Assembly (NCBI GenBank): GCA_944323135.1
Contig: CALURI010000013.1
Location: 1,039 to 65,038, forward strand
DNA: 64,000 nt
DNA from: Candidatus Gastranaerophilales bacterium
Lineage (GTDB): Bacteria; Cyanobacteriota; Vampirovibrionia; Gastranaerophilales; Gastranaerophilaceae
Direction: 5' to 3'
The notes beneath the pieces are model-generated. The model did no database searches. It had not been told where the DNA came from and saw nothing but the letters and a program-made list of their open reading frames with translations. The position numbers and the translations under genes were made by a program. Numbering within the stretch: the first letter of the stretch is position 1; every line of letters starts with the position of its first letter. Of the stretch, positions 937-22,065 are shown piece by piece.

Positions 937-1668
937 ATGCTGATATTTAATAAGAAATTTTTTGCATTTACTTTGGCGGAAGTTTTGGTAACTTTAGGGA
1001 TTTTAGGAGTTGTTTCCGCAATGACTATGCCTACATTGATGTCAAATCATCAAAAGAAAGTTTATGCTGTTGAGATGAATAAAGTTTATAATGAGCTTCA
1101 ACAAGCATTTATGAAATATAAAAATGATCAAAATGCAGTAACTTTATCTGAGGCTGGGTTAACATCTCAGGCAACTGTAAACCAATTTTTGAAAGATTAT
1201 TTCAAAACAGTTACTGTTTGCGACAAGCTTGAGCCTCCTTGTATTCCAAATACTGAATATAAAAATTTAAGAGGTTCTTCTGTCTCGGGCGGCGGTGTTG
1301 AAAATGTTAAAAATTGGTGGGGTAATGTAAATTGTGCTATTTTAGGAAGCGGTGCAAGCATCTGCATTGAAGCTTTGTCAAACCATTCTTCTAATGGTGT
1401 TAAATGGTCACATATACTTGTTGACACAAATGGTATGAAAAAACCAAATACTGCAGGAAGGGATGTTTTCTTTATTGCATATTATGAAAACGGCACTATT
1501 GATGAAGAAGGTGTTGTTCCTGTATGTGATGCTATGAAAATATGTACATTACCGACTGATGCGGCTGATAAAAGAGAACAGTTATTTAATAATATGTGTA
1601 AATCAAGTACTCGTTTCAGAGGTTGTTTCGGAAAACTAATAAATGATAATTGGGTAATGAATTATTAA
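937..1668 (+). CDS. Type IV pilin-like / pseudopilin protein with prepilin N-terminal cleavage-methylation motif
   Basis: N-terminus MLIFNKKFFA|FTLAEVLVTLGILGVVSAMTMPTL has Glu at +5 and a hydrophobic helix. The C-terminus GKLINDNWVMNY is shared with the paralogue at 34171. Confidence 0.8.
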   Translation: MLIFNKKFFAFTLAEVLVTLGILGVVSAMTMPTLMSNHQKKVYAVEMNKVYNELQQAFMKYKNDQNAVTLSEAGLTSQATVNQFLKDYFKTVTVCDKLEPPCIPNTEYKNLRGSSVSGGGVENVKNWWGNVNCAILGSGASICIEALSNHSSNGVKWSHILVDTNGMKKPNTAGRDVFFIAYYENGTIDEEGVVPVCDAMKICTLPTDAADKREQLFNNMCKSSTRFRGCFGKLINDNWVMNY

Positions 1669-1690: not shown

Positions 1691-4657
1691 TTATATTTTA
1701 ATGTTATTCATTACACAAAAAGTTGAAAGAGCTTTTGATGCTTGTTTAAGTTCTTTGAATACAGAATTATTTTTGGTTTGGACAATAACTTCTTCTGCTT
1801 GTGAATACATTTTTTGTGCAGCTTCAAGGTATTCTGTTTGTTGAGGAGATCTTACAAGTCCAAGTTCTTGAAAATATTTGCCATATAAAATATAAAGTCT
1901 TGAAAGAAGTTCATTAAGGTTGTATCTTTTTGCCAGAGCAATTGCTGTTTCCAGATTAATTTTTGCGGTTTCAAAATCAGAAGTTGTAATTGCGCATTGT
2001 GCAATTGTCATCCTAAATAGAATTATAAAGAAATAATTATCTATTTTAGGATTTTGAGCAACTTCAAGAGCTTGTTCAGCAATTTCAAGAGCGTTTTCCG
2101 GCCCTTCAGTCACGAGTGTTGCATCTGCAATTAAATACCAAGTTAAAAGTGCTCCTACTGCCATTTTTTCTTTTGCAAAATAAGCTATTTGATCGTTATA
2201 AATTTCGATTGCTTGTTTTGTATTGTCATTATCTTTAAATACTTTACCAAGAAGTGTTTTTAAAATATTTTTTGTAAAATTATCTCCGTTATTATTCGCA
2301 AATGTTACTATTTGGAATAAATCTTCTTGAATACCGTTATATTGTTTTCTGAAGAAATTATTTATTATGTTTATGAAATTCCATTTTAAAATGGTTTCAT
2401 TATCCATAATATTTTCACGGTATGATTTTAAAACTTCTTCAAGCATTTGTTCTGAAGCTTTAAAGTTCCCTTTCATAGTATTTGCATAGGCAAGTGTAAG
2501 TTTACATTTACATATAAATAATTCATCTTGAATTTGATTTCTTTCAATAATGTCGAAAAGTATTGTTAAAATTTCAAAAGATCTGTCATTCCCTTGCATT
2601 ACAAGCGCATTTGCAAGAATCAGATAGATTTTAAGCCAGTTTTCGTACATGAATATAAATTGCGGATCTTTAACATTGTGTTTTTTATTAAAATACTGAT
2701 CCAAAACAGGCATAATTTCGTTATCTATCATATTAATAACCTGTCCGCAATTTCCGATATTTAAAAGTGCATTTAATTTTGTTATTTTAACAAGAACTGC
2801 TTCTAAGGTATTTTCAGGTTTAATCTTACTTAATACGGAATCTACACATTCAACTTCTCCAAAATAATTTCCGGTTTTTCTGCAGCAAAATGACAAATAT
2901 GCAAGCAGTTCTATTTCTTTTGGACTGTCACCGACAGCTTGGGCATTTGAGATAGCATCAGGCAGGTATTCTATTGCTTCAATAGGATTTGAATTAGCAA
3001 GAAGTTTACCTAGTCTTTCCGAGATATTATATCTTATTTTTAATGTTTGGCTTTCATCAAATTCATTAATTAATGCGAGTGATTGTTTTTGTGATATTGC
3101 ATATAAATTCATATCACCTATATATGATGCAAAACGGGTATTTTTAGTCCATATATCAAGTGCTAATCTTGTCTCTTTAAGGTTTTGTGCGATAATAGCC
3201 AGTATTGCATTTGAGTTAAGTGTAAATTCTTTTAAATATTTGAAAATTCTTTTATTTATTTGAGCGTAATGAATATCATTTTTTGCAGTTTTTACAATAG
3301 TTTCCCACAGCATAAGAGAGCTGAATTCACAATATATATCATTTAAAGGAGTTATATAATCCATTTTTTTCAAATAAATCATAATCTCTCTAAATTTTGT
3401 ATCATCTATTTCAAATATTTCTTTTATAAGATTCATATTGATTTTATCGCCAATCATGGCAGAACCCAGAAGTATGTCATAAGCAACGGGGTTAAGATGT
3501 GATAGTAACGACAGCCTGAATTCCAAAAGACCTGCAAAACTTGTTGCAATTTCAAATTCTGTTCCGCTTAATTGGCAGTCGAAGCATAAATCAAGAGCGT
3601 GATTTATATACGATGGATTTCCTTTACTTATTTTATAAATTTCTTCTAGTTCAAAAATATTTAAATTTGGAAAACCTTCAATTTTGTTTGTTTTTTGTTC
3701 AACAAGCATGTTTATTTGCTTGAATTCTAATGGCGCAATGCCGACATCAAGATATATATTGTCATCTTTAACTTGCGGGAAGTAAAAATATCCTTTAGCT
3801 GGTTTTGATTCGTTATATAGTAAAAGCAATTTTAAATTGTCCCAAACATTGTCTTTTTGTATATAACGGCTTATAAATTCATAAGAAAATCCGTCAATAA
3901 AATCAAAATTATCTATTACAAATATAAATTTTCCTGTAGATGTTATCTTGTCAAATATTTTGTTTATAAAAGTGAAAGTATTGTGCTTTGAAGACAATAT
4001 ATCTTCAAATTTTCCTTCTTTGGCAGGATAGAGAAAATTGATTAAATCAAATATTTCATTATTATCAAGTTCCGGAAATTCATTTTTCAAAAATTTGGAG
4101 GCATCTTTTTTAAACTGCAAATTTGCAAGGCAAAAATTCGGTAAATTAAACAGATTTAATAATATATCTTGAATAAGTCCGCCTGGTGTAATTTGAGTAA
4201 TAGGTGTACATTTACCGTAAAGCCAAGAATAGTTTTTGTTATTAAAATCATGCATTAATGCTTTTAAAACAACAGTTTTACCTATTCCTTTTTCACCGTT
4301 TAAAGAAAATATTTTTTTATCTTTAGATAAAATACCTTTAACAAGGATATTTTTAGCATTTTGTTGTGAAACAAGATTTGACGGATATTCAAGTTTAATT
4401 TCCTTATGATTGTCAGTTTCAGGGGAAATTTTGGAAAAAGTATAACCGCATTTTCTGCATTTTTCTACATTAGGAAAATTAACGCTGTTGCAATTTGGAC
4501 AAATACGTAAGATTTCATTGCCGCAGTTTTTGCACTTAAAATCAAAAATTGAATTAACCGTATTACAATTTTTACAGATTAAACCTGTACGGGTTTTGCA
4601 ATACGGACACTTCAGAACATTGTCAGGAATTGTTTTTTTGCATATTGGACATTTCAT
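1691..4657 (-). CDS. Zinc-ribbon / P-loop NTPase / helical-repeat (STAND-like) protein
   Basis: There are 8 CxxC pairs in the first ~72 aa (CPICKK..CPYCK, CKNC..CKNCG, CPNC..CRKCG). Walker A is GEKGIGKT. A Walker-B-like FIFVIDNFDFID is present. About 650 aa of TPR-like helical repeats follow. It is the last gene of the operon with 4671-5267 and 5280-8339. Confidence 0.75.
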   Translation of the reverse strand: MKCPICKKTIPDNVLKCPYCKTRTGLICKNCNTVNSIFDFKCKNCGNEILRICPNCNSVNFPNVEKCRKCGYTFSKISPETDNHKEIKLEYPSNLVSQQNAKNILVKGILSKDKKIFSLNGEKGIGKTVVLKALMHDFNNKNYSWLYGKCTPITQITPGGLIQDILLNLFNLPNFCLANLQFKKDASKFLKNEFPELDNNEIFDLINFLYPAKEGKFEDILSSKHNTFTFINKIFDKITSTGKFIFVIDNFDFIDGFSYEFISRYIQKDNVWDNLKLLLLYNESKPAKGYFYFPQVKDDNIYLDVGIAPLEFKQINMLVEQKTNKIEGFPNLNIFELEEIYKISKGNPSYINHALDLCFDCQLSGTEFEIATSFAGLLEFRLSLLSHLNPVAYDILLGSAMIGDKINMNLIKEIFEIDDTKFREIMIYLKKMDYITPLNDIYCEFSSLMLWETIVKTAKNDIHYAQINKRIFKYLKEFTLNSNAILAIIAQNLKETRLALDIWTKNTRFASYIGDMNLYAISQKQSLALINEFDESQTLKIRYNISERLGKLLANSNPIEAIEYLPDAISNAQAVGDSPKEIELLAYLSFCCRKTGNYFGEVECVDSVLSKIKPENTLEAVLVKITKLNALLNIGNCGQVINMIDNEIMPVLDQYFNKKHNVKDPQFIFMYENWLKIYLILANALVMQGNDRSFEILTILFDIIERNQIQDELFICKCKLTLAYANTMKGNFKASEQMLEEVLKSYRENIMDNETILKWNFINIINNFFRKQYNGIQEDLFQIVTFANNNGDNFTKNILKTLLGKVFKDNDNTKQAIEIYNDQIAYFAKEKMAVGALLTWYLIADATLVTEGPENALEIAEQALEVAQNPKIDNYFFIILFRMTIAQCAITTSDFETAKINLETAIALAKRYNLNELLSRLYILYGKYFQELGLVRSPQQTEYLEAAQKMYSQAEEVIVQTKNNSVFKELKQASKALSTFCVMNNIKI

Positions 4658-4670
4658 TATATTAAAAATC

Positions 4671-5267
4671 CTAATTAAATGTCTGTTTTACTTTTTCCAT
4701 CAGCTTGAATAATCTTTTAGAAACCTCTGATTGAGATAGTGACAATTCTTCTGCTATTTCTTTTTGAGTCATACCTTTTTCATATCTTAAATCATATAAT
4801 TTAAGATAATTTTTTTCAGGTTCTTTTTCATCAATTTCGTAAACAGAATTAACAATAAGCTGTAAGATTTCTTTTTTTACGGCGTAATCTTCCGGCGTAT
4901 CTTGAATTGATACAGCATCATAATTTACATCAATTTTAGAATAATCAGGTATACTTGATTCTACTATAGATTCAAGAGGTACGGTATTGGAAGACATATA
5001 TCCGCTTTTACTTCTTCTTAACCTGCCTTCATTTTTAAGAACATTTAAAATTGATGTTGTTGCAATCTTTTTCAAATATGCTTCGAGTGTTACGTCTGAT
5101 GTAACAGTTTTTACAATCAAAAGTGAACGTTTGCAAGTTTCATTAAAAAAGTCATCGTACAAATCTTCGTTATTTGTAAATTTTCTATCGCTTTTAATTA
5201 TTTTTTCTATTAAATCTATTTTATCTTGAGCTAATTCCACGTTTAAGGTTCCTTTTATTCTTACCAC
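4671..5267 (-). CDS. Sigma-70 family RNA polymerase sigma factor (ECF-like size)
   Basis: 198 aa. The C-terminal region-4-type HTH is GMTQKEIAEELSLSQSEVSKRLFKLMEKVK. The N-terminal part is region-2-like. Gaps to the flanking genes are 12 and 13 nt. Confidence 0.6.
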   Translation of the reverse strand: MVRIKGTLNVELAQDKIDLIEKIIKSDRKFTNNEDLYDDFFNETCKRSLLIVKTVTSDVTLEAYLKKIATTSILNVLKNEGRLRRSKSGYMSSNTVPLESIVESSIPDYSKIDVNYDAVSIQDTPEDYAVKKEILQLIVNSVYEIDEKEPEKNYLKLYDLRYEKGMTQKEIAEELSLSQSEVSKRLFKLMEKVKQTFN

Positions 5268-5279
5268 ATTATAGCATAA

Positions 5280-8200
5280 TTAAAAGTATATGATAAGACT
5301 TAAATTGAAATCAGGGGTCTTAATCTCACTGCTAGGCGGTTTTACGACACTTAATGTATTTTTAACAGATTGTAACACAATGTTATCAATTTGTGTTGAG
5401 CCACTGCTGGAAACAATTTTTGAATCTAAAATATTTCCGTCTTTACTTAATTTTAAGCTAACTTTTACCTGATTTGTATATGCATATTCATTTGCAAGCA
5501 GTAAATCTGCAGAAAGTGATAATTTTATACTTTTACCTGCTGTTCTAAAATAATTTTGCATTTTAGGATTATATGAAAGAGTGTTTGGTACATCCCATAC
5601 GAGTTTATTTACATCCATATATGCACTTGTTTTATTTTGTTTTGGTTTAAGCGCTGTATTTTTTAATTCTTTAGTTGTTTGATTTGTTGCTATTGTTTCT
5701 TTTACGTTATTATTATTTAAATCAGGAACATTGGTTGCAAGTGTATTTGATTCAGCAGAAGTCGGTTCTGTAGAAGCCGATTCTGATAGAGGGCTTTCAT
5801 TGACTTCAGCTCCTGTATTTTGTGATGTAATAGGTTCTATATCACCAATAGTATCATCTTTTGGCTTTAATATCATAACTGCTGATGCTGCTGCTATAAT
5901 TGTGATTAAAGCAGTGGTAATCAGTATTGCACCTTTATTATTGCGTGATTTTTTATTGTACAGAGCTGCTCCAGGAATATTTTGCATCTGATTTTCATCA
6001 ATTGGTTCTTGTTCTTCTGAATTAAACTCTTCCATATTGTCAAGTTCTGCATCTGTTACAGGATCAGTATCATTAAATAAGACCCCTATGTTATCATTTT
6101 CAGAGTCGACAGGTTGATTATCATCATCATTATTTAGGAGTTCATCAATTGATGTATCATCAGTATTTTCAGCAGAATCCAAATTTCCAGATATAGAAGG
6201 CATATCATCTTCTAATTCAGGAGTATCTGTTAATTCTGATATTTCCGGAATTGAATCAAAATCTTCACTTGAAATATTTTCGTTACTTTCTTCTAATCCA
6301 TTTTCATCTTGTGTGTTTTCAGCTATAGCATAAGATTTATCAGATGATGTTAAAATATCATCAACTTGAGATAATAAATCATTAGAAGATATGTTTTCTG
6401 CATTTTTTTGAGTTATTTCAGTATTATCAAGATTTAAATTTTCTATTGATATATCATCAAGATTTTCAGATGATAAATTTTCAAGAAGGTTTTTACCAAA
6501 GCCTTCATTATTTGTTGATGGAATATCTTCTGCCGGTAATGTATCTTCTACTATTTCCGGTTCTTGATTTAGTGGTTCCGAATTAGTTTCAGTAGTGGAA
6601 ATAATATTATCTGGAGTGATTTCTTCATTAATTCCCGTATTATTTTCAAGATTTTCTGTTAAGTCGGTTGTATCCGGTTGTTCTTCTAAATTATTATTTT
6701 CCGGCAGATTTGTTTCTTCTTCTATATTATCCAGTGTTAATGTATCATCAAGAAAGTCATCCATTTCTTCATTTTCATTAATAATTTTATCAGTGTTTGC
6801 TTCTTCTTTGCTTTCTTTTTCATTGTCGAAAGATTCAAATGAAATGGTTTCTTCTTGATAATTTTCTTCCTTGTCTTGGGAGATATTTTCTTGTTGAATA
6901 TTATCAAAAGAAATCACATTATCAACTGTATCAATGTTGGAGGAATCTATTTCTGGGATATTATTTGAAATATCAATATTATCTAAAGATATTGTTTCAT
7001 CTGAGAAATTTTCTTCACTGTTAAGAGGTGTGACATCAGATATGTTTATATTATCTAAAGATATTTTTTCTTCATTTAAATTTAATGGAGCAGGTTCTTC
7101 TAAAGATTTTTCAATATCCGGTACATCGTTGAAAGAAATTTTATTGTCAATAGAGTCAATATAGTCAGTTTGTACGGTATTTTCAGGTATTTCAACATCA
7201 TTTAAAGATATTGGGTCTTCTTGGAAAGTTTCTTCAGAAGTTTCTATATTGTCAAGTTCAGTAGTGTCAATATTTTCAAATGAAATAGATTCATTATCTT
7301 CAATATTTGATGTATTTGCTGATAATTCAGAATCCCCGTCAGGTAAATCAGTGAAATCTAGTGCAGTTTCTGCTAAATCAACACTTTTATCAATAGTATT
7401 AAAAATTTCATCTGCCGCTTGAGCACCTGCAATTGCTGCAGCTCCCTCGATAGCTGTTTCTGCAATATCTGATATAATATTGTCAGTGTTTGCGTTATTA
7501 AACTCTTTGTGGCTTTCAACAGATTGTTCAGAAGTAAGATTTTCAATATCTTCAAGATTGCTTATTGCTTCTTGTGTATTTGTTTCTGTCAAATTTTCAA
7601 TTTCATTGGCAGATAATTTTTCTTCTATATTTTTACGATCAATTTTTGGATCTGTCATTGCTTTATATGAAAGTGTTTCAAAATTTTCATATTCTAAAAA
7701 TCTGTCTCTTAATTCAGCACTTTTCGTAAGTTGTTGAATTAAATATTTTTTATCGTTTTCAGAAATATCATTATCAGCCATTGCGATAATAATGCGTTCA
7801 GAATTTGTCAATTCTTCATCTGATAATTTTTCTGATGTACTGCCTTTGAAAGATTCAATATAATGTTTTAAATCTTTCACTGAATTTAATTTTTCTTTTT
7901 CAATAAAATAATATTTGTCATTAGCATTATTTTTATTTATAAGTTTAGGTTCGAAGAATCCTAAAAATTTCACATGAGAAAAATCTTTTGCAAGGTTTAA
8001 TACAAGGTAAATATCGGGAACAAGATTATATTCAAAATGAGATTTAGGAATAAATATTACATTTTCATCAAAAACAACTCTTACATCAATGTGAATATTC
8101 GGGAGCATTATATCAGAAATGTCTATTTCTTCAAGAATTTTTTTAATTGAATGGATATTGTGTATATTTGAAATGTCAATATTTTCTGCTGCAAGATATT

Positions 8201-8339
8201 TTAATGCAAGCTCTGCTCCTAGAGTATTTATATATGCTCTGTTTTTAGTATCTTTGTGTGCAAATGCGTTAGCTGCAACGCTTGCATCATGTTTATCCTG
8301 ATTTTCAATGTAAATTAATGTATCTTGTTCTGTAACCAT
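5280..8339 (-). CDS. Giant acidic single-pass membrane protein with a TonB-C-terminal-like domain (possible anti-sigma-like partner)
   Basis: 1019 aa. Layout: ~190-aa N-terminal globular part, ~600 aa of D/E/N/S-rich low complexity with ISLDNI-type repeats, a TM helix GAILITTALITIIAAASAVMIL (aa ~803-824), and a C-terminus VKVSLKLSKDGNILDSKIVSSSGSTQIDNIVLQSV..KPP. That C-terminus parallels the TonB C-terminus in this window (LLFKIAKDGRLLSCSVFKSSGLPGADKAAINAV). Confidence 0.6.
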   Translation of the reverse strand: MVTEQDTLIYIENQDKHDASVAANAFAHKDTKNRAYINTLGAELALKYLAAENIDISNIHNIHSIKKILEEIDISDIMLPNIHIDVRVVFDENVIFIPKSHFEYNLVPDIYLVLNLAKDFSHVKFLGFFEPKLINKNNANDKYYFIEKEKLNSVKDLKHYIESFKGSTSEKLSDEELTNSERIIIAMADNDISENDKKYLIQQLTKSAELRDRFLEYENFETLSYKAMTDPKIDRKNIEEKLSANEIENLTETNTQEAISNLEDIENLTSEQSVESHKEFNNANTDNIISDIAETAIEGAAAIAGAQAADEIFNTIDKSVDLAETALDFTDLPDGDSELSANTSNIEDNESISFENIDTTELDNIETSEETFQEDPISLNDVEIPENTVQTDYIDSIDNKISFNDVPDIEKSLEEPAPLNLNEEKISLDNINISDVTPLNSEENFSDETISLDNIDISNNIPEIDSSNIDTVDNVISFDNIQQENISQDKEENYQEETISFESFDNEKESKEEANTDKIINENEEMDDFLDDTLTLDNIEEETNLPENNNLEEQPDTTDLTENLENNTGINEEITPDNIISTTETNSEPLNQEPEIVEDTLPAEDIPSTNNEGFGKNLLENLSSENLDDISIENLNLDNTEITQKNAENISSNDLLSQVDDILTSSDKSYAIAENTQDENGLEESNENISSEDFDSIPEISELTDTPELEDDMPSISGNLDSAENTDDTSIDELLNNDDDNQPVDSENDNIGVLFNDTDPVTDAELDNMEEFNSEEQEPIDENQMQNIPGAALYNKKSRNNKGAILITTALITIIAAASAVMILKPKDDTIGDIEPITSQNTGAEVNESPLSESASTEPTSAESNTLATNVPDLNNNNVKETIATNQTTKELKNTALKPKQNKTSAYMDVNKLVWDVPNTLSYNPKMQNYFRTAGKSIKLSLSADLLLANEYAYTNQVKVSLKLSKDGNILDSKIVSSSGSTQIDNIVLQSVKNTLSVVKPPSSEIKTPDFNLSLIIYF

Positions 8340-8527
8340 GCTATTTCTCCTATTCTATATAATAAGATGACATTCAATTAAAAAATATTCCAATTATTTT
8401 GTAAATTTTTGTAACAATTGTTGAAAAAGTTTTAATTTTTAGACAAAATTAATTTATCAGTCGTTTTTTTTATAATGTGAAATTGAATTATTTTGAAAAG
8501 TGTGTAATATAAAAGGAGGTTTCCAAA

Positions 8528-10268: not shown

Positions 10269-11471
10269 ATGGGAAATGAAAAAATCAATTCAATAGATTA
10301 TAAAGAATTGTATGCGCAGTACAATTGGTTTGCCAATTCTTATTTGCCCGCTGTTCAGGCATCTTGTGATGAATTTTTCCTGCCCGGGTTCAAGTTTATA
10401 TTATTAGGGATAAGTAAAAATATTAATACATTAATGGATAAGGATGCGTATTTTGTTACCAAAATTCGTGTAGATAAATTGCATGATATGTTTTTCCGTA
10501 CTTCTGAAGAGGCTGTTGGAATTATTTTTGATAAAATACTCGGCAGATCAAATTCCAGATTTAATTTGAATAAGTTAACAGATTTGGAAGCTAAAATAAT
10601 TACTTCATTTAATGATTTTATGTTTAATACACTTTCCCAATTTTTAATCCCTTCGCCTCCTGTTTTAAAGAGGACGAATTTTGATGTTATTCATTTAACT
10701 TTTTTGCTTAAAGATGTTGCATCAAATAAAGTTGCAAAGTTTATTATTACTTTACCCGAAGAGCTTTTAAACCCTGATGTTGTTACATCAAGTGAAGATA
10801 AATTTGAATACGGAGATTTTGAAACAAGTGTAATTGATGTAGCCGTTAAAATTGGAACTACAAGATTTAAATTAATAGATGTTAAAAATATTGAAGTGGA
10901 TGATATTGTAGTTTTTGATGACAGTAACATAAATCGTATGGTTTTAAAGTTTAAAGATTACGAAACAGATATAAATTTAAACCCAAATTTGGGACTGGTT
11001 ATGCCGGTGGATAACGATGGAGGAAATGAGAATATGGCAGGAGAAAATACAAATCTCTGGGACAGTATTGAAGTTGATATGAGTGCCCAATTTGATACTG
11101 TAAAAATTACTCTTGGCGAATTAAAAAATATAGAAAAAGGGCTTGTTGTGGATTTGACATCTATTTATGACAACAAGGTAACATTACGTGTTGAAGATAA
11201 ACCTATAGCTCGCGGAGAACTTGTTATCGTAAATGACAGATATGGTGTAAAAATTGATGAAGTTATTGCACCTACTCCAAAAGCTGATGTAAATCAAAAT
11301 TCTTTGCCGCAGCAAAATGATGAGTTTGAATCTCAAAGTTCAGATATGGATTTTGATGATAATGTGTCTGACAATTTGCCTGAACAGACTGAAATTCCAC
11401 AGGGAGTTCAAAACCCAGAAGAAGATGAATTTGATTACAGTGATTTTGAACTTGAGGACGAAGATATATAG
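10269..11471 (+). CDS. Flagellar motor switch protein, FliM/FliY-like, with C-terminal FliN (SpoA) domain
   Basis: The FliN-type C-terminus is VKITLGELKNIEKGLVVDLTS..VTLRVEDKPIARGELVIVNDRYGVKIDEVI. The middle region is FliM-like (NKLTDLEAKIITSF). It sits directly upstream of fliO-P-Q-R. Confidence 0.75.
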   Translation: MGNEKINSIDYKELYAQYNWFANSYLPAVQASCDEFFLPGFKFILLGISKNINTLMDKDAYFVTKIRVDKLHDMFFRTSEEAVGIIFDKILGRSNSRFNLNKLTDLEAKIITSFNDFMFNTLSQFLIPSPPVLKRTNFDVIHLTFLLKDVASNKVAKFIITLPEELLNPDVVTSSEDKFEYGDFETSVIDVAVKIGTTRFKLIDVKNIEVDDIVVFDDSNINRMVLKFKDYETDINLNPNLGLVMPVDNDGGNENMAGENTNLWDSIEVDMSAQFDTVKITLGELKNIEKGLVVDLTSIYDNKVTLRVEDKPIARGELVIVNDRYGVKIDEVIAPTPKADVNQNSLPQQNDEFESQSSDMDFDDNVSDNLPEQTEIPQGVQNPEEDEFDYSDFELEDEDI

Positions 11472-11491
11472 AATATTTTTTCGGAGGGATA

Positions 11492-11899
11492 ATGAGTACT
11501 TATTTGTTAAATTTCATAGTTTATACGGCAGCAATGATAGGAATTATATTTGTAGCTGTTTTTGTGTATAAAAAGTTTTCTCTTACTGGAAATTTAAAAT
11601 CAAAGTTTTTAAATGTAGAAGAATGCATAAGTCTTGCACCGAGAAAAGAACTTTATGTTGTACGAGCCGGTAGTGAAAGATTTTTAGTCGCATCTGATGT
11701 CGGCAGGACAACTCTTATATCAAAACTTTCAGATAGTGAAACAATTCCATCACAAATAAATTCTGAAAACGGAGCTTCTGTATTAAAAACTCAAAATAAA
11801 TGCAGTGTTGATGATTTGCCGACAATCGTTGATTTTCAAAAAGCTTCTGCTCAAAAAGTACCGAAAAAAGTTTTCAAAAATATTATAAATAACATTTAG
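11492..11899 (+). CDS. fliO: Flagellar biosynthesis protein FliO
   Basis: A single N-terminal TM helix is followed by a LAPRKELYVVRAGSERFLVAS-type motif. Its position immediately upstream of fliP supports the call. Confidence 0.6.
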   Translation: MSTYLLNFIVYTAAMIGIIFVAVFVYKKFSLTGNLKSKFLNVEECISLAPRKELYVVRAGSERFLVASDVGRTTLISKLSDSETIPSQINSENGASVLKTQNKCSVDDLPTIVDFQKASAQKVPKKVFKNIINNI

Positions 11900-11909
11900 A
11901 GGAATAAAA

Positions 11910-12551
11910 ATGGATACGATAATAAAAGATATGAACCCTGTTTTACAAATGCTGATATTAATGACGGTTTTCTCATTAATACCACTTATTTTTTGCTGTA
12001 TGACAAGCTTTTTAAGATTTGTTATAGTTTTTTCAATGTTAAAAACAGCAATGGGTACTCAGCAAGTTCCTCCTTCTATTGTAATTGTAGGTTTAGCAAT
12101 GATTTTGACATTTTATACAATGGGCGGAACATTCCAAAAAATGTATGAAATGGGTTCTGTTCCGTATCACAAAAATCAAAATATTGTAGAGGCAATTAAT
12201 GAGGGTTCAAAACCTTTAAAAGAATTTATGATGAAACAAACAAGGGAAAGTGATTTGGCATTCTTTATTGAAGCTTCAAAAGGACAAGCACCTAAAAACC
12301 CTGAGGAAATTACGGTTTGGCAAGTTGCGCCTGCGTTTATTATAAGTGAATTGAAAACATCTTTTGAAATCGGATTTATAATTTTTGTTCCGTTCATAGT
12401 ATTAGATCTTGTTGTTGCAAATATTTTGTTAGCACTTGGTATGTTTATGTTGTCCCCGACAATTATATCTTTACCGTTTAAGCTGTTGATATTTATTGCG
12501 GTTGACGGTTGGGCGTTAATTGTTCAGGGACTGGTTACAAGTTACAATTAA
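11910..12551 (+). CDS. fliP: Flagellar export apparatus protein FliP
   Basis: Contains FLRFVIVFSMLKTAMGTQQVPPSIVIVGLAMILTFYTM and FIIFVPFIVLDLVVANILLALGM. Confidence 0.9.
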   Translation: MDTIIKDMNPVLQMLILMTVFSLIPLIFCCMTSFLRFVIVFSMLKTAMGTQQVPPSIVIVGLAMILTFYTMGGTFQKMYEMGSVPYHKNQNIVEAINEGSKPLKEFMMKQTRESDLAFFIEASKGQAPKNPEEITVWQVAPAFIISELKTSFEIGFIIFVPFIVLDLVVANILLALGMFMLSPTIISLPFKLLIFIAVDGWALIVQGLVTSYN

Positions 12552-12565
12552 TATCTATGAATCAG

Positions 12566-12697
12566 ATAATCTACAAAGAGGATAAAAAGCCTCAGACAAA
12601 AATAAAAAAAGGTTACACAATAATCTGTAAAGAGGGTAAAAAAGCCTCAGACAAAAATAAAAAAGGTTACACAATAATCTACAAAGAGGGTAAAAAA
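12566..12697 (+). repeat. 54-bp tandem repeat (~2.4 copies) in the fliP-fliQ spacer
   Basis: Copies start at 12566, 12620 and 12674 (ATAATCT[AC/GT]AAAGAGG[A/G]TAAAAA..GCCTCAGACAAAAATAAAAAAGGTTACACA). Each copy carries the AAAGAGGGTAAAAAA Shine-Dalgarno-like segment. Only the last is followed by ATG. Confidence 0.9.
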
Positions 12698-13186
12698 ATG
12701 GAAGTTTTAGTTGAATATCTGGCAAAAGGCTTTTTAATAATGCTTGCAATATCAATGCCTTGTGTACTTGTAGCTGCAGGTATCGGTCTTGTTGTAGGTA
12801 TTTTACAAGCTGTTACTCAGGTTCAGGAACAGACTATTGCAGCTGCGCCAAAGATTCTTGGGGTTTTCCTTGTTATTGTAATCGGTGGTATAGGTTTTAT
12901 AAATATGTTAAAAAGTTTTACGCTTGATGGAATGTCTATGGCGTTTAATTTAATATCGAAAAATGATACTTATGTACTTCCAGCGGATTATTATAAATAT
13001 ACCAGCCCATTTGAGCATGAAATGTCTGATAAATTTAAAAATCAATCTTCAATTAATGATATGATGAAAAATCCGGGTAAAGTTCCGTTTATAGATCAAC
13101 AGCAAAAAACTAAATATTATGCAAGTCCTCAGACACCTATGCCGCGTCCGAATTTTGTAGAAACAAACCAAATTTTGGGGAGATAG
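12698..13186 (+). CDS. fliQ: Flagellar export apparatus protein FliQ with a ~75-aa C-terminal extension
   Basis: MEVLVEYLAKGFLIMLAISMPCVLVAAGIGLVVGILQAVTQVQEQTIAAAPKILGVFLVIV is canonical FliQ. The ATG at 12698 has a GAGGG RBS. The upstream part of the long ORF from 12509 is repeat-derived. Confidence 0.85.
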   Translation: MEVLVEYLAKGFLIMLAISMPCVLVAAGIGLVVGILQAVTQVQEQTIAAAPKILGVFLVIVIGGIGFINMLKSFTLDGMSMAFNLISKNDTYVLPADYYKYTSPFEHEMSDKFKNQSSINDMMKNPGKVPFIDQQQKTKYYASPQTPMPRPNFVETNQILGR

Positions 13187-13189
13187 AAT

Positions 13190-13531
13190 ATGAAAAAATT
13201 ATTGTTAATTCTTTCTGTAATAATTTTTATTCCTCTTCAGAGTTTTGCGTTTGAAGATTATATTATAACGTCTGACAAACCTGTCAAATCTGTTTCATCA
13301 AGTGATGAAAGTATAATTTCCGTATTGCCTTTTTTTACCATAGATAACAGAAAAGACACAATTATTGTCAAAGCAAAACGTGAGGGAAACGCAGAAATAA
13401 AAGTAGTTCGAGATGACAAAGATATTATTATAAATGTCAAGGTTACACCTGAGCAAACAACTTTTACTTGCGATGATGATTTTGCATATTTCCCGCTGGA
13501 TAGACCTGATGATAAGAAGGAGGGTAAGTAA
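13190..13531 (+). CDS. Small secreted beta-rich protein inserted between fliQ and fliR
   Basis: Signal peptide MKKLLLILSVIIFIPLQSFA. The mature part (VKSVSSSDESIISVLP...IIVKAKREGNAEIKVV..IIINVKV) resembles a pilus-formation N-terminal / Ig-like beta domain pattern. Confidence 0.5.
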   Translation: MKKLLLILSVIIFIPLQSFAFEDYIITSDKPVKSVSSSDESIISVLPFFTIDNRKDTIIVKAKREGNAEIKVVRDDKDIIINVKVTPEQTTFTCDDDFAYFPLDRPDDKKEGK

Positions 13532-13533
13532 AT

Positions 13534-14313
13534 TTGGAACATATCATTGAAGAATTGATGAAGATGTTTCCTATGCTTAATGCTTATTTAGCAGCAGGTA
13601 TATTTATTTTTGCGCGTATGCTGGGATTTTTCAGACTTGCACCGGTATTTAACAGAAAAGAAATCCCAGGTATGGTTAAATTAGGGCTAATTCTCTTGAT
13701 AACCATAGTTTTGACTTGTATTTCAAAACCTGAAGTTACAATAATTAAAGAATCGTTTGCTCTGTCAATTTTGTTGAATATGGTAGTAGGTGCAATGATT
13801 GGTTATATTGCGCAATTAATTTTACTCGCCGTTGATGCCGGCGGAGATATGGTAAATATGCAGATGGGGCTTTCTTCTGCAATGGTTTTAGACCCCACAA
13901 CTTCTTCGCAGGTATCTATTGTAGGTAAATGTTTTCAACTTTTAGGTTTGATAATTTTTATACAGTTAGGCGGTGTTTATTGGCTTTTGTCTGCGCTTAT
14001 AAGAAGTTTTGAAATATTCCCGTTAGATGCTACAATCATTCCTTTACAACAAATTGTAAATATGGACTATATGGTTCAATTGTCATCAAATGTTTTGTTT
14101 ATGGGGCTGCAAATTGCCTCTCCTATACTTCTTGCAACTCTTGGTCAAGATATTATTCTTGGTGTAATTTCAAAAACAGCACCTCAGGTAAACGTTTTTC
14201 AGCTCAGCTTTTTATTCAAACCTGTTTTGGGAGCTGCAATAATGGTTTGGATTTTACCTATGTTAGTTAATATTATTTCAGATTATTTTTTGTCTTTTGC
14301 AAAAATTATTTAA
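13534..14313 (+). CDS. fliR: Flagellar export apparatus protein FliR
   Basis: A polytopic membrane protein in the fliPQR position. The FARMLGFFRLAPVF motif is typical of FliR. The start is uncertain: TTG at 13534 or ATG at 13558/13564. Confidence 0.85.
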   Translation: MEHIIEELMKMFPMLNAYLAAGIFIFARMLGFFRLAPVFNRKEIPGMVKLGLILLITIVLTCISKPEVTIIKESFALSILLNMVVGAMIGYIAQLILLAVDAGGDMVNMQMGLSSAMVLDPTTSSQVSIVGKCFQLLGLIIFIQLGGVYWLLSALIRSFEIFPLDATIIPLQQIVNMDYMVQLSSNVLFMGLQIASPILLATLGQDIILGVISKTAPQVNVFQLSFLFKPVLGAAIMVWILPMLVNIISDYFLSFAKII

Positions 14314-16358: not shown

Positions 16359-17044
16359 GCTAGTCCTTTCATAATTTTAACCGCTTGAGCAATTGTGAGG
16401 ACAATGTAATCTGCACCTGCAGCAAGGACACCTGAGGCTGAAGAGATTTCAAGATATAATGCAAGATTTTTATCTTTTGCTTCTTTTGTTTTAGCGGTCT
16501 CTTCTGTTGCAAAAGATATAATCGGCATATTCAAAAATTTGTCACCTTGTTTATTATCGTTACACTTGCCTTCAAGTTTAATTTTTTCCATAATACTGTA
16601 GCCGTATTCAAAACCATACCCAAGTCCGCCAATGTCAGTATCCATTAATATTTTATCCAAACTAAGCCCCATATCAGAAGTTAAAATATTCATTTCTTTT
16701 GCAAGGTTGATATCAATAGGTGTGCGGATAATGAGTTTGTGCCCTCCTTTTATGACAGGAGGGACAATATTTTTATAATTATTTTCATTTGCAATCCCTA
16801 TTATACATTCTCTGTCAAGAATATCCATAACAGAAGGCAAAAGATTAATGTCAACGGAATCGTTTCCACATCCTCTTAACATTAAAGGCTTATTAATTTT
16901 TGGAAGAAGATTTTTTAATATTATTAATTCTTGTTCCCAATTTTCTTCTGAAAATTTTATACCTAAAATGTCACAATCGTTTGTTAAATTTTTTTCCGCT
17001 TCATAAATCGGAACTTGTAAAATATATTTAACTTTGTCTTTCAC
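16355..17044 (-). CDS. Corrinoid iron-sulfur protein small subunit-like (AcsD/CdhD-like TIM barrel)
   Basis: [12 protein letters not shown]...[10 protein letters not shown]...[14 protein letters not shown] pattern. It has a 4-nt ATGA overlap with the AcsC-like gene and a 17-nt overlap with the ftsH 3' end. Confidence 0.6.
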
Positions 17045-18926
17045 TTGCTACTCTGTTCATAATTTCTTGAAATTCATCAGCATCAATAGTTTCTTTATCA
17101 AGAAGTTCTTTTGCGATAGCTTCAAGCATGTCTCTGTTTTCGTTTAAAAGTCTTTTAGCTTCTTCGTATTTGGCATCAACAATATTTTTCATTTCTTCAT
17201 CAATTTCAAAGGCTACTTGTTCGGAGTAATCTCTTTGATGACCGAAGTCTCTGCCCATAAATACATTTTCTTGATTTTTACCGTATGCCATGTTGCCTAA
17301 TTTATCTGACATACCCCAAGCTGTAACCATTTTTCTTGCAATATTTGTAACGTTTATCAAATCTTGGGATGCGCCTGTGCTTACTCTGTCTTTACCGTAG
17401 ACTATTTCTTCTGCAGCTCTTCCGCCTAAAGATACAGTAATTTGTGCTAATAATTTTGCTTTATTAGTGTGAACTTTTTCATCTTTAGGTTTTGTCCAAG
17501 TAACTCCGAGAGCATAACCTCTTGGAATGATAGAAACTTTGTGTAATTCATCTGCATCATTCAATAATTTTGCAAGAAGTGCATGACCTACTTCGTGGTA
17601 TGATGTTAATTCTTTATCTTCGTCAGTCATTACTTTGCTTTTCTTTTCAATGCCAGCGATAACTCTATCTATTGAATTATCAATATCTTCCATTGAAATT
17701 TTTTCTTTATTATGTCGAGCTGCAAGTAATGCTGCTTCATTAAGCAAGTTTTGTAAATCAGCTCCCGTAAATCCTGGAGTTCTTTTTGCTAAAGTTTTTA
17801 AATCTACTTCAGGTTCAAGTTGTTTATTTTTAGCGTGAACTTTTAGGATTTGTTCTCTCCCTCTTACATCAGGAGCGTTGATATAAATTTGTCTGTCAAA
17901 TCTGCCAGGTCTTAATAATGCGTTATCCAAAATGTCAGGTCTGTTAGTTGCTGCAATTACAATAATATTTGTATTTTCATCAAAACCGTCCATTTCAACA
18001 AGTAATTGGTTCAAAGTTTGTTCGCGTTCATCGTGTCCGCCTCCCATACCTGCACCACGTTGACGGCCTACTGCATCAATTTCGTCAATAAATATAATGC
18101 AAGGCTGATGCTTTTTAGCCTGTTCAAATAGATCTCTTACACGGCTTGCACCTACACCTACAAACATTTCAACAAAATCTGAACCGCTTATTGAGAAAAA
18201 CGGTACACCGGCTTCTCCTGCCACAGCTTTTGCCATTAATGTTTTACCTGTTCCCGGAGGACCTACAAGAAGTACCCCTTTAGGAATTCTTGCGCCTAAT
18301 TTTATGTATTTGTCGCCGTTTTTCAAAAAGTCAACTATTTCTTCAAGTTCTTTTTTCTCTTCGTCAATCCCTGCTACATCTTTGAATGTTGTTTTAACTT
18401 TACTGTCAAGAAGCATTTTGGCTTTGCTTTTTCCAAATGACATTGCCTGAGAGCCGCCTGCTTGAATGCTTTTTGCCATAACTGCAAGAAATACTAAGAA
18501 TAATATCGGTAATAATAAATAACTTAATACATTTGCAAGAGTTTTTGAAGATTCTGTTGCTCTTGTAATTTGAATTTCCGCATTAGATGCATCAAGTTTT
18601 TTCATCAAATCAGGGTCAAATGTCGGAGTTAAAACTTTGTATTTAAGAGTGGGAGCTTTAGTTTGAGGTACTCCAAAAGGGTTATCCATAGTTGGAGTTA
18701 TAGCCTTAGGAGTTTCCGGTTCTGGCTGAACTTTAGGTATTGCTATTAAGAAATCATCTGCTTTTTCTATTTTTTTGAATTCACCTTTATCAAGTCTTTC
18801 CAAAAAGTTTGAATATGAAATTTCTGAAACCTTTGTTGTAGGTCCTGACAAGAATACTGATGAAACAAAAAGAAGTACAACTATAGCTAATACGATGTAC
18901 ATTCCTGCAGATTGACTTTTATTCAT
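17028..18926 (-). CDS. ftsH: ATP-dependent zinc metalloprotease FtsH
   Basis: Walker A GPPGTGKT, the second region of homology, and the zinc motif HEVGHAL. 632 aa with an N-terminal TM helix. Confidence 0.95.
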
Positions 18927-19662: not shown

Positions 19663-20118
19663 TTAACCTTTCATATTTTTACCTTTTTCAAGGTCTTTTT
19701 GTTCTTTTTTGCTCAAAGGTTCGCCTGCGACAATAAGCTTTTTGTATTCTGCATCTTGAGCGGCATTCATAATTTCCATTATTTTTGCACTTTTAACTTT
19801 TTCATCTGCTTTAACAACAAGTTCAGGTTTTTCAAGCTGAGATTTTAAAGTTACTAATTCATTTGTCAAATTGTCTTCTCTGACAGGTGTACCGTTAAGG
19901 TACATCTTGCCATCTTTGGTTACTGAAACAGTGGCATTTTTTTGCTCAATAGAAATCCCGCTGTTAATCTCAGGCATTGTAATGGAACTGTCATGGGACT
20001 GGAAAGTTGGTGCTACAACCATCATTATGATTAACAGTACAAGAAAAATATCTGTTAAAGGTGTTATATTGATTTCTGTAAAGAGAGCTTCTTTGCCCTT
20101 GTTTGTTTTCATTGACAT
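19663..20118 (-). CDS. exbD: Biopolymer transport protein ExbD/TolR (second copy)
   Basis: EINITPLTDIFLVLLIIMMV motif. Tandem to the first exbD. Confidence 0.85.
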   Translation of the reverse strand: MSMKTNKGKEALFTEINITPLTDIFLVLLIIMMVVAPTFQSHDSSITMPEINSGISIEQKNATVSVTKDGKMYLNGTPVREDNLTNELVTLKSQLEKPELVVKADEKVKSAKIMEIMNAAQDAEYKKLIVAGEPLSKKEQKDLEKGKNMKG

Positions 20119-20187
20119 TTTGGTAACATTACTTACGATTATTTATATCGTAATTTCCTTTCTTTTTTATGTTTAGTAACGTCATTA

Positions 20188-20835
20188 TTATAATGATATG
20201 TTTGCGTTTGAAGGTGTAGTTGATTCATCATTTGAGTCAACAAAGCTTAAGAATAACAATTTAATTAATTGGAAATCATCTTCATAACGTTTAACAATTG
20301 ATTGGAAAGAGTTATAGAAGATAACCGCAACAATTGCAACTCCCAAACCAAATGCAGTAGCAATCAATGCTGAAGCAATACCTGATGCAACTGCTGCTGA
20401 TTGGTTTCCTTGAGCAGCCAAGTCTTGGAATGTAAAAAGAATTCTTACAACTGTACCGAACAACCCTAAAAACGGAGCAACACCGCCAATTGTACCTAAA
20501 ATTGTTAAATGGCTTTCTAATTTTCTTGATGCAAGTGATGCTGCAATATCAAAAGAACGAGAGAATCCATTTTTTTGTTCTGAAAATATTCTGACAGCTT
20601 CTTCCGTAACTTCTCCGATAACTCCGCCGCATTGTATTGCAAGGTTTTGAGCCCCATCAAGATTGTTTTTTACAAGTTCTTTTTGTAATCTTGGAATAAA
20701 TAATACAACATCTCTTTTATTCTTTTTGTAAAAAGAAAATCTGTTGATTACAACGCCTACAACCAATATTGAACAAACTAAAATCGGTAGCAATACTGGC
20801 CAGTCCATTTTGATTGAATTTAACAATAGTTCCAT
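20188..20835 (-). CDS. exbB: MotA/TolQ/ExbB proton channel protein
   Basis: Three TM helices. The LGTIGGVAPFLGLFGTVVRI motif is typical of ExbB/TolQ. Confidence 0.85.
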   Translation of the reverse strand: MELLLNSIKMDWPVLLPILVCSILVVGVVINRFSFYKKNKRDVVLFIPRLQKELVKNNLDGAQNLAIQCGGVIGEVTEEAVRIFSEQKNGFSRSFDIAASLASRKLESHLTILGTIGGVAPFLGLFGTVVRILFTFQDLAAQGNQSAAVASGIASALIATAFGLGVAIVAVIFYNSFQSIVKRYEDDFQLIKLLFLSFVDSNDESTTPSNANISL

Positions 20836-20877
20836 AGTTTTTTATCCTCTTTTTATAACAATAATTTACGATTTTTA

Positions 20878-22065
20878 TTAATAACCTGATGCTCCAAATA
20901 CGTTATAGTCAAACGTAAATTGAATATCAATACTTGAGCCTTTAAATTCAGCAGGCAGCGGTCTGAAAGGTGCTGTTGCCTGAACTGCGTTAATTGCGGC
21001 TTTATCGGCTCCCGGAAGCCCTGATGATTTGAATACGCTACAAGAAAGTAATCTTCCGTCTTTTGCGATTTTGAATAGAAGAACTACACGTTTGCTTTCA
21101 TTTCCTTTTGGCGGATCCCAATTCATTTTTATACGTCTTTGTAATTCTCTCATATAAGGTCCGAAATCAGGTTCTCTTATGGCATCAATACCCGGTCTTC
21201 CGTTAGGATTTCCCGGCCCAGGATTGCCGTAACCGCCTGTTCCGCCGCCCCCGCCTTTAGCGAGTTTACTGCCAGAACCTCCTGTTGGAGCTAGTGACGG
21301 AGTTGGTGCACTTGAACCCTTTCCGGCAGTAGAAGTTCCACCGCCACCACCGCCTTTAGAAGATGTTCCGGAACCGCTTATTGGTCCTGTTGTGTATCTT
21401 CCTGAACCTGTACCACCTTTAGGAACTGGTACTGCAAAAGGACTTGAAGGTTTTGCTACAGGTTTTGGTGTTGTTGGAGGTTTTATAGACGGTCTGGCTG
21501 TTGGCGGAGCCGGTTTAGCCGCTTGCGGGGCTTTAGGACCTGGTGCCGGTTGTTGAGCCGTCTTTTTCGGAGCAGGAGCTTGAACTTGTTCAGTTACCTG
21601 CTTAACAATTTTTTGAAGCGGATTTTGTGCTGCTTGTTTTGCCGGAGCCGGTTTTTTTGCCGGTGCGGAAGCGGTTTGTTTTATAGCTCCCGGTGCCGGA
21701 GATGGCATAGAGACTTTCCTTTTTGGGTCATGATGCCCGCCTGCTCGTGAATTTATGTCTGCTCTATATGGAGTTTTCGGGTTGATAGGTGTTTCTTCTT
21801 TGTCAACAAGCACAAATTCAATATCATTCATTTTTGGTTTTGGTTTGTCAAATATAGTAAGAGTTATCCCTAACATTCCGAGTATTAAAACTATTAAAGC
21901 CCAAATACCTATTGCAGTGGGATGCAATAATGCTGAAATCAGCATTGATTTTTTTAAGCTGATTGCCTCATCGTCTTTTAATACTGCAGGTGTTGTGTAA
22001 CCTGTATTTGTTTCTTGCTCTTCTTCTTCTATAAAGTTTTCGGTATATTTTCCTATTAAGGACAT
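20878..22065 (-). CDS. tonB: TonB family energy transducer
   Basis: N-terminal TM helix, a long Pro/Ala/Lys-rich and Gly-rich spacer, and a C-terminal TonB domain (YMRELQRRIKMNWDPP...FKSSGLPGADKAAINAV...F). Confidence 0.8.
   Translation of the reverse strand: MSLIGKYTENFIEEEEQETNTGYTTPAVLKDDEAISLKKSMLISALLHPTAIGIWALIVLILGMLGITLTIFDKPKPKMNDIEFVLVDKEETPINPKTPYRADINSRAGGHHDPKRKVSMPSPAPGAIKQTASAPAKKPAPAKQAAQNPLQKIVKQVTEQVQAPAPKKTAQQPAPGPKAPQAAKPAPPTARPSIKPPTTPKPVAKPSSPFAVPVPKGGTGSGRYTTGPISGSGTSSKGGGGGGTSTAGKGSSAPTPSLAPTGGSGSKLAKGGGGGTGGYGNPGPGNPNGRPGIDAIREPDFGPYMRELQRRIKMNWDPPKGNESKRVVLLFKIAKDGRLLSCSVFKSSGLPGADKAAINAVQATAPFRPLPAEFKGSSIDIQFTFDYNVFGASGY

Follow-up and report, generated by a model that had tools for sequence, protein, structure and literature searches.

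In the Fec system (FecA-FecR-FecI together with TonB), control over an extracytoplasmic function (ECF) sigma factor reaches across the inner membrane, with the C-terminal domain of TonB involved in contact with the outer membrane. In the type III-E CRISPR system Craspase-Csx30-RpoE, a dedicated partner holds an ECF-like sigma factor until a large sensor brings about its release. Here we analyse a locus of Candidatus Gastranaerophilales bacterium (Melainabacteria/Vampirovibrionia; contig CALURI010000013.1, assembly GCA_944323135.1), which lies in a 64,000-nucleotide stretch of DNA, termed the window, and comprises genes for a predicted membrane protein with an N-terminal DUF1822 domain (P1), an ECF-like sigma factor and a zinc-ribbon NTPase of the STAND class (signal transduction ATPases with numerous domains). 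Genes for DUF1822 proteins and ECF sigma factors have been described beside EACC2-caspase sensors, some of them with STAND domains, by Kaur, Iyer, Burroughs & Aravind (eLife 2021; PMC8195603), and the link between DUF1822 and ECF sigma genes is stated there in passing, in one sentence of a comparative-genomics paper. An earlier note on the window, made from the sequence alone, knew of no described module of this exact composition; this calls for a qualification, since a linkage of DUF1822, ECF sigma factor and sensor had already been mentioned (PMC8195603).

We favour the view that the three genes form a dedicated, vertically inherited sigma-factor control module of the Gastranaerophilales, in which P1 would keep or control the sigma factor at the inner membrane, the STAND NTPase would act as a co-regulator and the sigma factor would be the output; for this model as a whole, including the mechanism outlined below, we estimate a probability of about 0.5. 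The proteins appear to act together with the sigma factor as output because the genes are co-inherited, because P1 has undergone fission with its halves kept side by side, and because the literature links DUF1822 with ECF sigma factors (PMC8195603). What the analysis establishes are the domain identities of the proteins, a predicted topology, strict co-inheritance in a fixed gene order and conserved promoter-like elements.

A scan of one genome per species yielded DUF1822-domain relatives in 216 genomes, and 74 loci from species-level genomes with enough sequence to judge the gene order were compared. Among the best 80 of the 216, every genome with a lineage name is labelled Gastranaerophilales, Gastranaerophilaceae, Melainabacteria or Ca. 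Stercorousia, and the rest are termed “uncultured bacterium” or represent old bins labelled Clostridium or Brachyspira. The DUF1822 part, the TonB_C-like end of P1, the sigma gene and the NTPase gene follow each other in this order on one strand with minimal gaps in all 74 loci, with identities of 59-93% (DUF1822 part), 45-74% (P1 amino acids (aa) 801-1019), 59-96% (sigma factor) and 58-91% (NTPase). P1 is a single open reading frame (ORF) in 73 of the 74 loci, and its orthologues are 780-1200 aa long. A lineage at 55% identity (L007, 8001..11018; L008-L010) harbours P1 split into a DUF1822 gene of 311-314 aa, which keeps a short acidic tail, and a gene of 679-690 aa for the acidic, transmembrane (TM) and TonB_C-like parts. 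The two halves adjoin upstream of the sigma and NTPase genes, and since the fission leaves them adjacent, they are functionally tied. The same gene order is found in a locus at 48% identity, which lies in a different neighbourhood (SecDF, trigger factor). The conservation of the trio as a neighbourhood, which the earlier note had proposed to check, thus extends to every relative examined, including the distant 55% and 48% lineages, which have other neighbours on the downstream or upstream side. Upstream of the trio hemN is present in 68 of the 74 loci, and the downstream neighbours are variable. When the NTPase and the DUF1822 profile served as queries, the top matches listed were only close Gastranaerophilales orthologues; for the distribution beyond this order and the wider context of DUF1822, the basis is the Pfam match and one paper (PMC8195603).

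Two further observations concern the loci compared. The junction of the split P1 genes varies: it is an in-frame stop in L007, and in L008 the stop of the first ORF overlaps the start of the second. The records “Clostridium sp. CAG:768”, “Clostridium sp. CAG:967” and “Brachyspira sp. CAG:484” (L017, L042 and L068) also carry the locus, and their names are evidently legacy mislabels.

The features of the locus are compiled in Table 1. The ORFs as listed are separated by 12 nucleotides (nt; P1 and the longest sigma ORF) and 13 nt (sigma factor and NTPase), and the ORF coordinates bear out the early description of three co-directional minus-strand genes at these distances. The label “three-gene operon” fits the tight trio, but is too simple in view of a conserved internal promoter-like element and a divergent fourth gene. 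The G+C content of the trio (0.28-0.30) matches that of the flanks (0.27-0.33); there is therefore no sign of recent transfer, and horizontal acquisition of the trio was rejected. Plus-strand ORFs of 80-87 aa within the trio genes are treated as antisense artefacts of a mechanical ORF list.

Table 1. Features of the sigma-factor locus, with positions in the window and, for parts of P1, residue numbers
Feature	Position	Strand	Basis or remark
NTPase gene, 988 aa	1691..4657	minus	three zinc ribbons, STAND core, helical repeats of the tetratricopeptide repeat (TPR) type
sigma gene, 189 aa from conserved GTG	4671..5240	minus	longest ORF starts at 5267 (198 aa)
candidate internal sigma-70-type promoter, TTATCA-17 nt-TG-n-TATAAT	5268..5296	minus	consensus scan
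P1 gene, 1019 aa	5280..8339	minus	ORF; DUF1822 N-domain, polyacidic linker, TM helix, TonB_C-like domain
TonB_C/TolA-like domain, predicted periplasmic, P1 aa 906-1019 (~114 aa)	5283..5624	minus	Pfam and alignment
P1 TM helix, aa ~803-825	5865..5933	minus	sole hydropathy peak, Kyte-Doolittle 2.46
polyacidic linker, P1 aa 233-795	5955..7643	minus	poorly conserved, presumably disordered
eight ~25-aa repeats, core I-S-[FL]-[DEN]-[DN]-[IV], P1 aa 352-540	6720..7286	minus	shuffle test
DUF1822 domain, P1 aa 1-232	7644..8339	minus	Pfam PF08852 and AlphaFold2 (AF2) model
divergent intergenic region	8340..8527	.	conserved blocks AAAACGACTG, ATTTTGTC and TTGTTACAAAAATTTACA in 74 aligned upstream regions
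conserved motif TTGGAATATTTTTT-N-GTGTCATCTTAT, GGAAT-N15-GTC	8362..8393	minus	candidate ECF-type -35/-10 of P1
small single-TM protein, 146 aa	8528..8968	plus	ORF divergent from P1; candidate fourth module member

The globular N-terminal part of P1 had been estimated at ~190 aa; it spans about 230 aa instead and corresponds to the Pfam family DUF1822. Scanned alone, the N-domain matches PF08852 with 41.2 bits (gathering threshold 25; E 1.5e-10), a match that is hidden by the acidic region when full-length P1 is scanned against Pfam. The profile is covered at positions 2-204 of 370, and thus P1 harbours only its N-terminal ~55%. DUF1822 was matched in 24 of 24 P1 orthologues tested, and nothing else recurred in these proteins in a Pfam scan at E<=10. 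Modelling of the P1 N-terminus alone, a step suggested at the outset, yielded a confident AF2 model of aa 1-243 (predicted local distance difference test score (pLDDT) 88.9; predicted template modelling score 0.84), which consists of an alpha/beta core (aa ~1-150) and, C-terminal to it, four helices (aa 154-229).

The DUF1822 core of P1 is probably restriction-endonuclease-like because its model matches phage proteins among predicted viral structures (BFVD). There were 18 such matches at E<=1e-3 (best E 6e-6), with template modelling (TM) scores of ~0.6 and root-mean-square deviations of 4-5 Å over 170-200 columns; the matched phage proteins are ~130-325 aa long, in most cases 150-200 aa, and two carry the name restriction endonuclease. 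A comparison of the same model with the PDB gave nothing significant, and the weak top matches were the PD-(D/E)xK nucleases HincII, AspBHI and influenza PA-N. Residues E70, D73, D76, H83, D85, R87, K99 and H101 are invariant in P1 orthologues. The canonical (D/E)xK position reads I-P-K in P1, with an Ile two residues before the invariant K99, and nuclease activity is therefore doubtful; D85 is among the invariant residues as well. A PHROGs search with the N-domain gave no informative match, a PDB sequence search with the DUF1822 profile returned only noise (EF-hand proteins), and tblastn of the N-domain against plasmids gave no match. A literature search by PF08852 found no paper naming the family, and no experimentally assigned function of DUF1822 was found in the literature.

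The region that follows the DUF1822 domain is extremely acidic: P1 aa 231-795 (~565 aa) contain 28% Asp/Glu and 2.8% Lys/Arg, resulting in a net charge of about -144. Across 74 P1 orthologues the linker varies in length (347-741 aa), net charge (-105 to -220) and Asp/Glu content (23-35%), and its column identity is mostly 0.1-0.4, compared to a high identity of P1 aa 1-232 and 906-1019. The linker repeat occurs in 8 copies versus 0.08 expected from 2000 shuffles, with a median of 4 copies in the orthologues. No DNA-level tandem repeat was found under the linker repeats, and a recent DNA tandem expansion of the acidic region was therefore rejected. One might speculate that the TPR arm of the NTPase binds these repeats. 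Near its start, the acidic region includes an Ala/Gly-rich, weakly hydrophobic segment, AIEGAAAIAGAQAADEIF (7400..7460; P1 aa ~295-312), and similar segments are present in several orthologues.

The TM helix of P1 is preceded by KKSRNNK, has four Lys/Arg within the preceding 12 residues and is followed by a Ser/Thr-rich stretch. The predicted N-in topology, with a cytoplasmic bulk, one TM helix and a periplasmic TonB_C-like domain, had been noticed in the window protein and holds in 74 of 74 orthologues; since the helix and the preceding Lys/Arg cluster are kept, this topology is a conserved property. The C-terminal part scanned alone matches TonB_2 (35 bits versus 22; E 1.5e-8) and TonB_C (27.4 versus 24.6; E 4.7e-6). 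It also aligns with the C-terminus of the genuine TonB of the window (27% identity, E 3e-7), which together with the family matches substantiates a parallel already drawn in the earlier note, and its column identity among orthologues is 0.6-0.9. P1 lacks the properties of a TonB energy transducer: the TM helix, which contains no His, occupies aa ~803-825 of the 1019 residues, and the spacer is Ser/Thr-rich, not Pro-rich. P1 as a TonB protein was rejected on these grounds, as the helix lies at the wrong end and a real tonB-exbBD cluster is encoded elsewhere.

The NTPase consists of zinc ribbons (aa 1-73), a STAND nucleotide-binding core (aa ~95-480) and TPR-like repeats (aa ~484-988). The N-terminal segment contains 12 invariant Cys residues, which form three zinc ribbons of the type CxxC...CxxC, and the Walker A motif G121xxG124xG126K127 (GxxGxGK) is invariant. 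The Walker B motif, hhhhD249-N250 (3908..3913), carries an invariant Asn where a second acidic residue is expected, and hydrolysis may thus be slow or absent. Pfam assigns DZR, AAA_16, TPR_12 and TPR_MalT to the protein, where AAA_16 scores 29.1 bits on the window protein, just below the cut-off of 32.6, and is recorded for most orthologues. The AF2 model has a pLDDT of 87.7, and in a Foldseek comparison with the PDB it matched best 6mfv, a STAND-TPR protein (E 3.8e-11), followed by Avs3 (E 2.5e-8), MalT and Apaf-1. With a P-loop nucleotide-binding oligomerization domain (NOD) and a repeat sensor arm, the protein is confirmed as a STAND NTPase; the invariant Cys residues and Walker A motif together with the fold match to 6mfv agree with the initial description of a 988-aa STAND-like protein with zinc ribbons, Walker motifs and helical repeats.

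Profile hidden Markov models support the sigma factor as well as the TonB_C-like fold, the two identities on which the earlier note had made its proposal depend. The sigma factor matches TIGR02937 (sigma70-ECF, NCBIfam) with 67.2 bits versus 42.9 over aa 28-195, Sigma70_r4 with 33 bits versus 24.1 (E 4e-8) and Sigma70_r2 only weakly (E 0.11), and it shows a faint match to NF041236, the type III-E CRISPR-associated sigma family (24 bits versus a cut-off of 100). While the sigma-70 family with a region-4 helix-turn-helix (HTH) had been recognized correctly, the length of 198 aa had not: the protein most likely starts at GTG 5240 and comprises 189 aa, nine codons less than the longest ORF. This start is favoured because in most orthologous loci a stop codon interrupts the frame between the counterpart of GTG 5267 and the conserved GTG 5240, and because the latter is preceded by a conserved AAGGAAA ribosome-binding site; public gene calls also record the 189-aa form. 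As a consequence, the gap between P1 and the sigma gene is 39 nt long and holds a promoter-like element. Here, TTATGCTATAAT directly after the P1 stop forms an extended -10 element, which is nearly invariant in the 74 loci, and the TTATCA -35 lies 17 nt upstream; judged by its letters, the element may function as a promoter. A search of plasmids with the sigma factor gave a single match, from Nostoc, with 28% identity and without a DUF1822 neighbour, and a PADLOC search with the sigma factor gave generic HTH matches only.

The intergenic region upstream of P1 is conserved to an extent that is exceptional for an AT-rich genome. An alignment of the upstream regions of 74 loci revealed that TTGGAATATTTTTT-N-GTGTCATCTTAT is near-invariant, and its GGAAT-N15-GTC pattern, whose geometry is ECF-like, may act as the P1 promoter. 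Upstream of this ECF-like motif, TTGTTACAAAAATTTACA (8395..8420, minus strand) comprises two TTACAA-like half-sites ~11 bp apart and may represent a binding site for a response-regulator-type protein. The small divergent protein is likely a fourth member of the module. It has a single TM helix and a conserved N-terminal motif, MISSVSNINFRG, and an ORF is present at its position in 73 of 73 loci. Homologues occur in distant loci, L007 (E 6e-11) and L094 (E 4e-4; different neighbourhood), and one distant locus that carries the small protein has GroEL and TyrRS upstream. Searches of Pfam and PHROG with the small protein yielded no family match.

Several other genes are found in the vicinity. Convergent with the NTPase gene is a gene (937..1668, plus strand) for a 243-aa protein whose N-terminus carries a methylation motif of the prepilin type, and this gene lies downstream of the module in only some relatives. 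A flagellar export cluster (FliN-like, FliO, FliP, FliQ and FliR) is located near the module at 10269..14313 (plus strand), and its relative position varies among lineages. The genuine tonB gene (395 aa, Pro/Gly-rich spacer) lies with exbB and exbD at 19663..22065 (minus strand), and this cluster is adjoined by FtsH at 17028..18926.

In the model that we prefer, the ECF-like sigma factor would be the output of the module. P1, as a bitopic protein of the inner membrane, would hold or otherwise control the sigma factor at the membrane through its cytoplasmic DUF1822 domain. The TonB_C-like domain would dock on an envelope partner, for instance peptidoglycan or an outer-membrane protein that offers a TonB-box-like strand, and in this way report the state of the envelope, and the polyanionic linker with its ~25-aa repeats would be a flexible tether and maybe a partner platform or DNA mimic. 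The STAND NTPase would provide a second, cytoplasmic input, where a ligand or peptide on the TPR arm leads to nucleotide-dependent oligomerization, and the oligomer would present its three N-terminal zinc ribbons to P1 or the sigma factor. Upon release, the sigma factor would switch on the P1 promoter (GGAAT-N15-GTC) and a further regulon, and the sigma factor and the NTPase may be constitutively expressed from the internal promoter. Every contact between the proteins is inferred in this model, as are its signal, its regulon and the direction in which regulation runs.

The proposal that P1 controls the sigma factor draws on a likeness of its helices to a known anti-sigma factor. P1 aa 182-218 align with MucA aa 8-44 (hhalign P 0.014) in the register expected for sigma-binding helices, and Foldseek relates the P1 N-domain to the cytoplasmic part of MucA in the AlgU-MucA complex (8z6g) with a probability of 0.8 and a TM score of 0.68 over 58 columns; the corresponding hhalign value for RseA is P 0.15. 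This likeness to MucA is only suggestive. A number of points weigh against the proposal. Measured against a whole database, the resemblance to MucA falls short of significance, and no recognized anti-sigma domain was found by Pfam (neither RseA_N nor zf-HC2 nor any other anti-sigma family in 24 orthologues), NCBIfam or a PDB sequence search. The restriction-endonuclease-like core with its many invariant charged residues could have an enzymatic or DNA-binding role instead of binding a sigma factor. Moreover, the gene of the putative regulator precedes the sigma gene, which is an unusual order, and the sigma gene appears to own a housekeeping promoter. The P1 upstream motif has no second copy in the 64-kb window nor in 1.4 Mb of flanking loci, and therefore no regulon is visible; energisation by ExbBD is unlikely since the P1 helix lacks the His motif and the linker is Ser/Thr-rich. 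The anti-sigma layout that the earlier note saw in P1 stands as regards the topology beside a sigma gene, but the identity of P1 as an anti-sigma factor is putative, given that the domain is DUF1822 and no anti-sigma family of Pfam matches. DUF1822 might be a new sigma-binding domain, composed of a restriction-endonuclease-like fold and a MucA-like hairpin, and part of a STAND-gated trans-envelope route via TonB_C contact and polyanionic tether; we regard this idea as tentative and rather doubtful.

The module may control the sigma factor through a protein other than P1, namely the triple zinc ribbon of the NTPase or the small divergent membrane protein, with P1 acting downstream or in parallel, e.g., as a membrane-tethered nuclease-like or DNA-binding protein kept in check by its own polyacidic tail. 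The resemblance of the DUF1822 core to restriction-endonuclease-like proteins, with its set of invariant residues from E70 to H101 (E70/D73/D76/H83/D85/R87/K99/H101), is in keeping with such a role, and an acidic tail beside a DNA-binding-type fold could be autoinhibitory; for P1 as a nuclease, however, the I-P-K at the (D/E)xK position is a poor fit, as it makes activity doubtful. The small protein has the size and the N-in single-pass layout of minimal anti-sigma factors and an ORF in 73 of 73 loci, but its N-terminus looks like a low-complexity rather than a helical sequence. Likewise, the sigma and NTPase genes are 13 nt apart and downstream of their own promoter-like element, yet no evidence here connects such zinc ribbons with the binding of a sigma factor, and the literature link specifically concerns DUF1822 with ECF sigma factors. 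We consider a sigma partner other than P1 unlikely. An anti-invader (conflict) system in the sense of Kaur et al., where the STAND protein senses a phage or other invader in the manner of Avs proteins, DUF1822 serves as effector and transcription is reset in response by the sigma factor, appears improbable. The NTPase does match Avs3 (Foldseek E 2.5e-8) and other immune STAND proteins, the P1 N-domain has a restriction-endonuclease-like fold, DUF1822-ECF neighbourhoods are placed among conflict systems in the literature (PMC8195603), and the sigma factor has its faint match to the type III-E CRISPR-associated family (24 versus 100 bits). However, PADLOC matches neither P1 nor the NTPase, the module and its surroundings encode no protease, caspases included, and the N-terminus of the NTPase offers only zinc ribbons and no enzymatic effector. 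The 74 loci also show a stable site beside hemN (68 of 74) and strong conservation, and the loci examined display no patchiness, mobile-element neighbours or deviation in G+C content.

The genes might finally be neighbours by descent only, with unrelated functions, owing to slow rearrangement in a small, streamlined genome. In many genomes hemN and the flagellar export genes are syntenic with the trio as well, and part of the conservation is therefore simply local gene order. Yet the trio remains intact and ordered despite variable downstream neighbours and different flanks in distant loci, its gaps are tight, the split P1 halves stay adjacent, and for other phyla an association of DUF1822 with ECF sigma genes has been reported independently (PMC8195603). 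A purely positional association is very improbable in our judgement, and a sigma-factor control module with P1 at the membrane is the reading that we retain.

The locus represents a clean single-copy example of the DUF1822-ECF association across an order of human-gut Melainabacteria and offers several handles. Its sigma factor is defined, two promoter elements are conserved, the N-domain is well modelled and has invariant charged residues, and a natural gene fission as well as a STAND switch as companion are available. Should control of the sigma factor lie with P1, the module would constitute a non-canonical anti-sigma architecture, where a TonB_C domain serves as a sensor or anchor rather than as an energy transducer; if it does not, the module would still belong to the core regulatory equipment of an uncultured gut lineage. 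Should DUF1822 be a sigma-binding domain, this would be the first function for the family across Cyanobacteria and their non-photosynthetic relatives, and the trans-envelope route would be previously undescribed. No description of an anti-sigma factor that bears a TonB C-terminal domain came up in the literature searched.

In comparison with textbook anti-sigma systems, the module most likely differs in the route by which the sigma factor is switched on or off. Its proposed mode of action resembles that of a sigma/anti-sigma pair to which a STAND input has been added. Like the anti-sigma factors of the RseA-RpoE and MucA-AlgU pairs, P1 is a predicted N-in bitopic protein with cytoplasmic, TM and periplasmic parts, encoded beside an ECF-like sigma factor. 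Unlike RseA and MucA, which have a ~70-aa helical anti-sigma domain, P1 harbours a cytoplasmic domain of ~230 aa with an alpha/beta core and a ~565-aa acidic linker before the membrane; furthermore, the gene order is reversed and sigma binding is putative. The proposed control of an ECF sigma factor across the inner membrane with the involvement of a TonB-type C-terminal domain is reminiscent of the Fec system. In contrast to Fec, the TonB_C-like domain resides within the regulator P1 itself and not in a separate TonB, a FecR domain is absent, no TonB-dependent transducer is encoded nearby, and the P1 helix lacks the TonB His motif. The module also differs from Craspase-Csx30-RpoE, as it comprises neither a protease nor a CRISPR context, and the NF041236 score is far below the cut-off.

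The NTPase resembles MalT, PH0952, Apaf-1 and Avs proteins in its arrangement of a P-loop NOD followed by a TPR-type arm (Foldseek E 3.8e-11 to 1e-7). Unlike these STAND proteins, it carries a triple zinc ribbon as N-terminal module instead of a DNA-binding, CARD or nuclease effector domain, an invariant Asn replaces the second acidic residue of Walker B, and its output would run through the neighbouring sigma factor. Similar to the neighbourhoods of Kaur et al., the module encodes a DUF1822 protein next to a sigma factor of the ECF type and a large sensor composed of several domains. In contrast to those systems, neither the trio nor its flanks contain an EACC2, caspase or CHAT domain, the product of the third gene opens with zinc ribbons, and P1 continues from a partial (~55%) DUF1822 domain into a polyacidic linker, then a TM helix and finally a TonB_C-like domain. 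Moreover, while the conflict systems of Kaur et al. are variable, the module described here has the behaviour of a chromosomal core locus within a single order.

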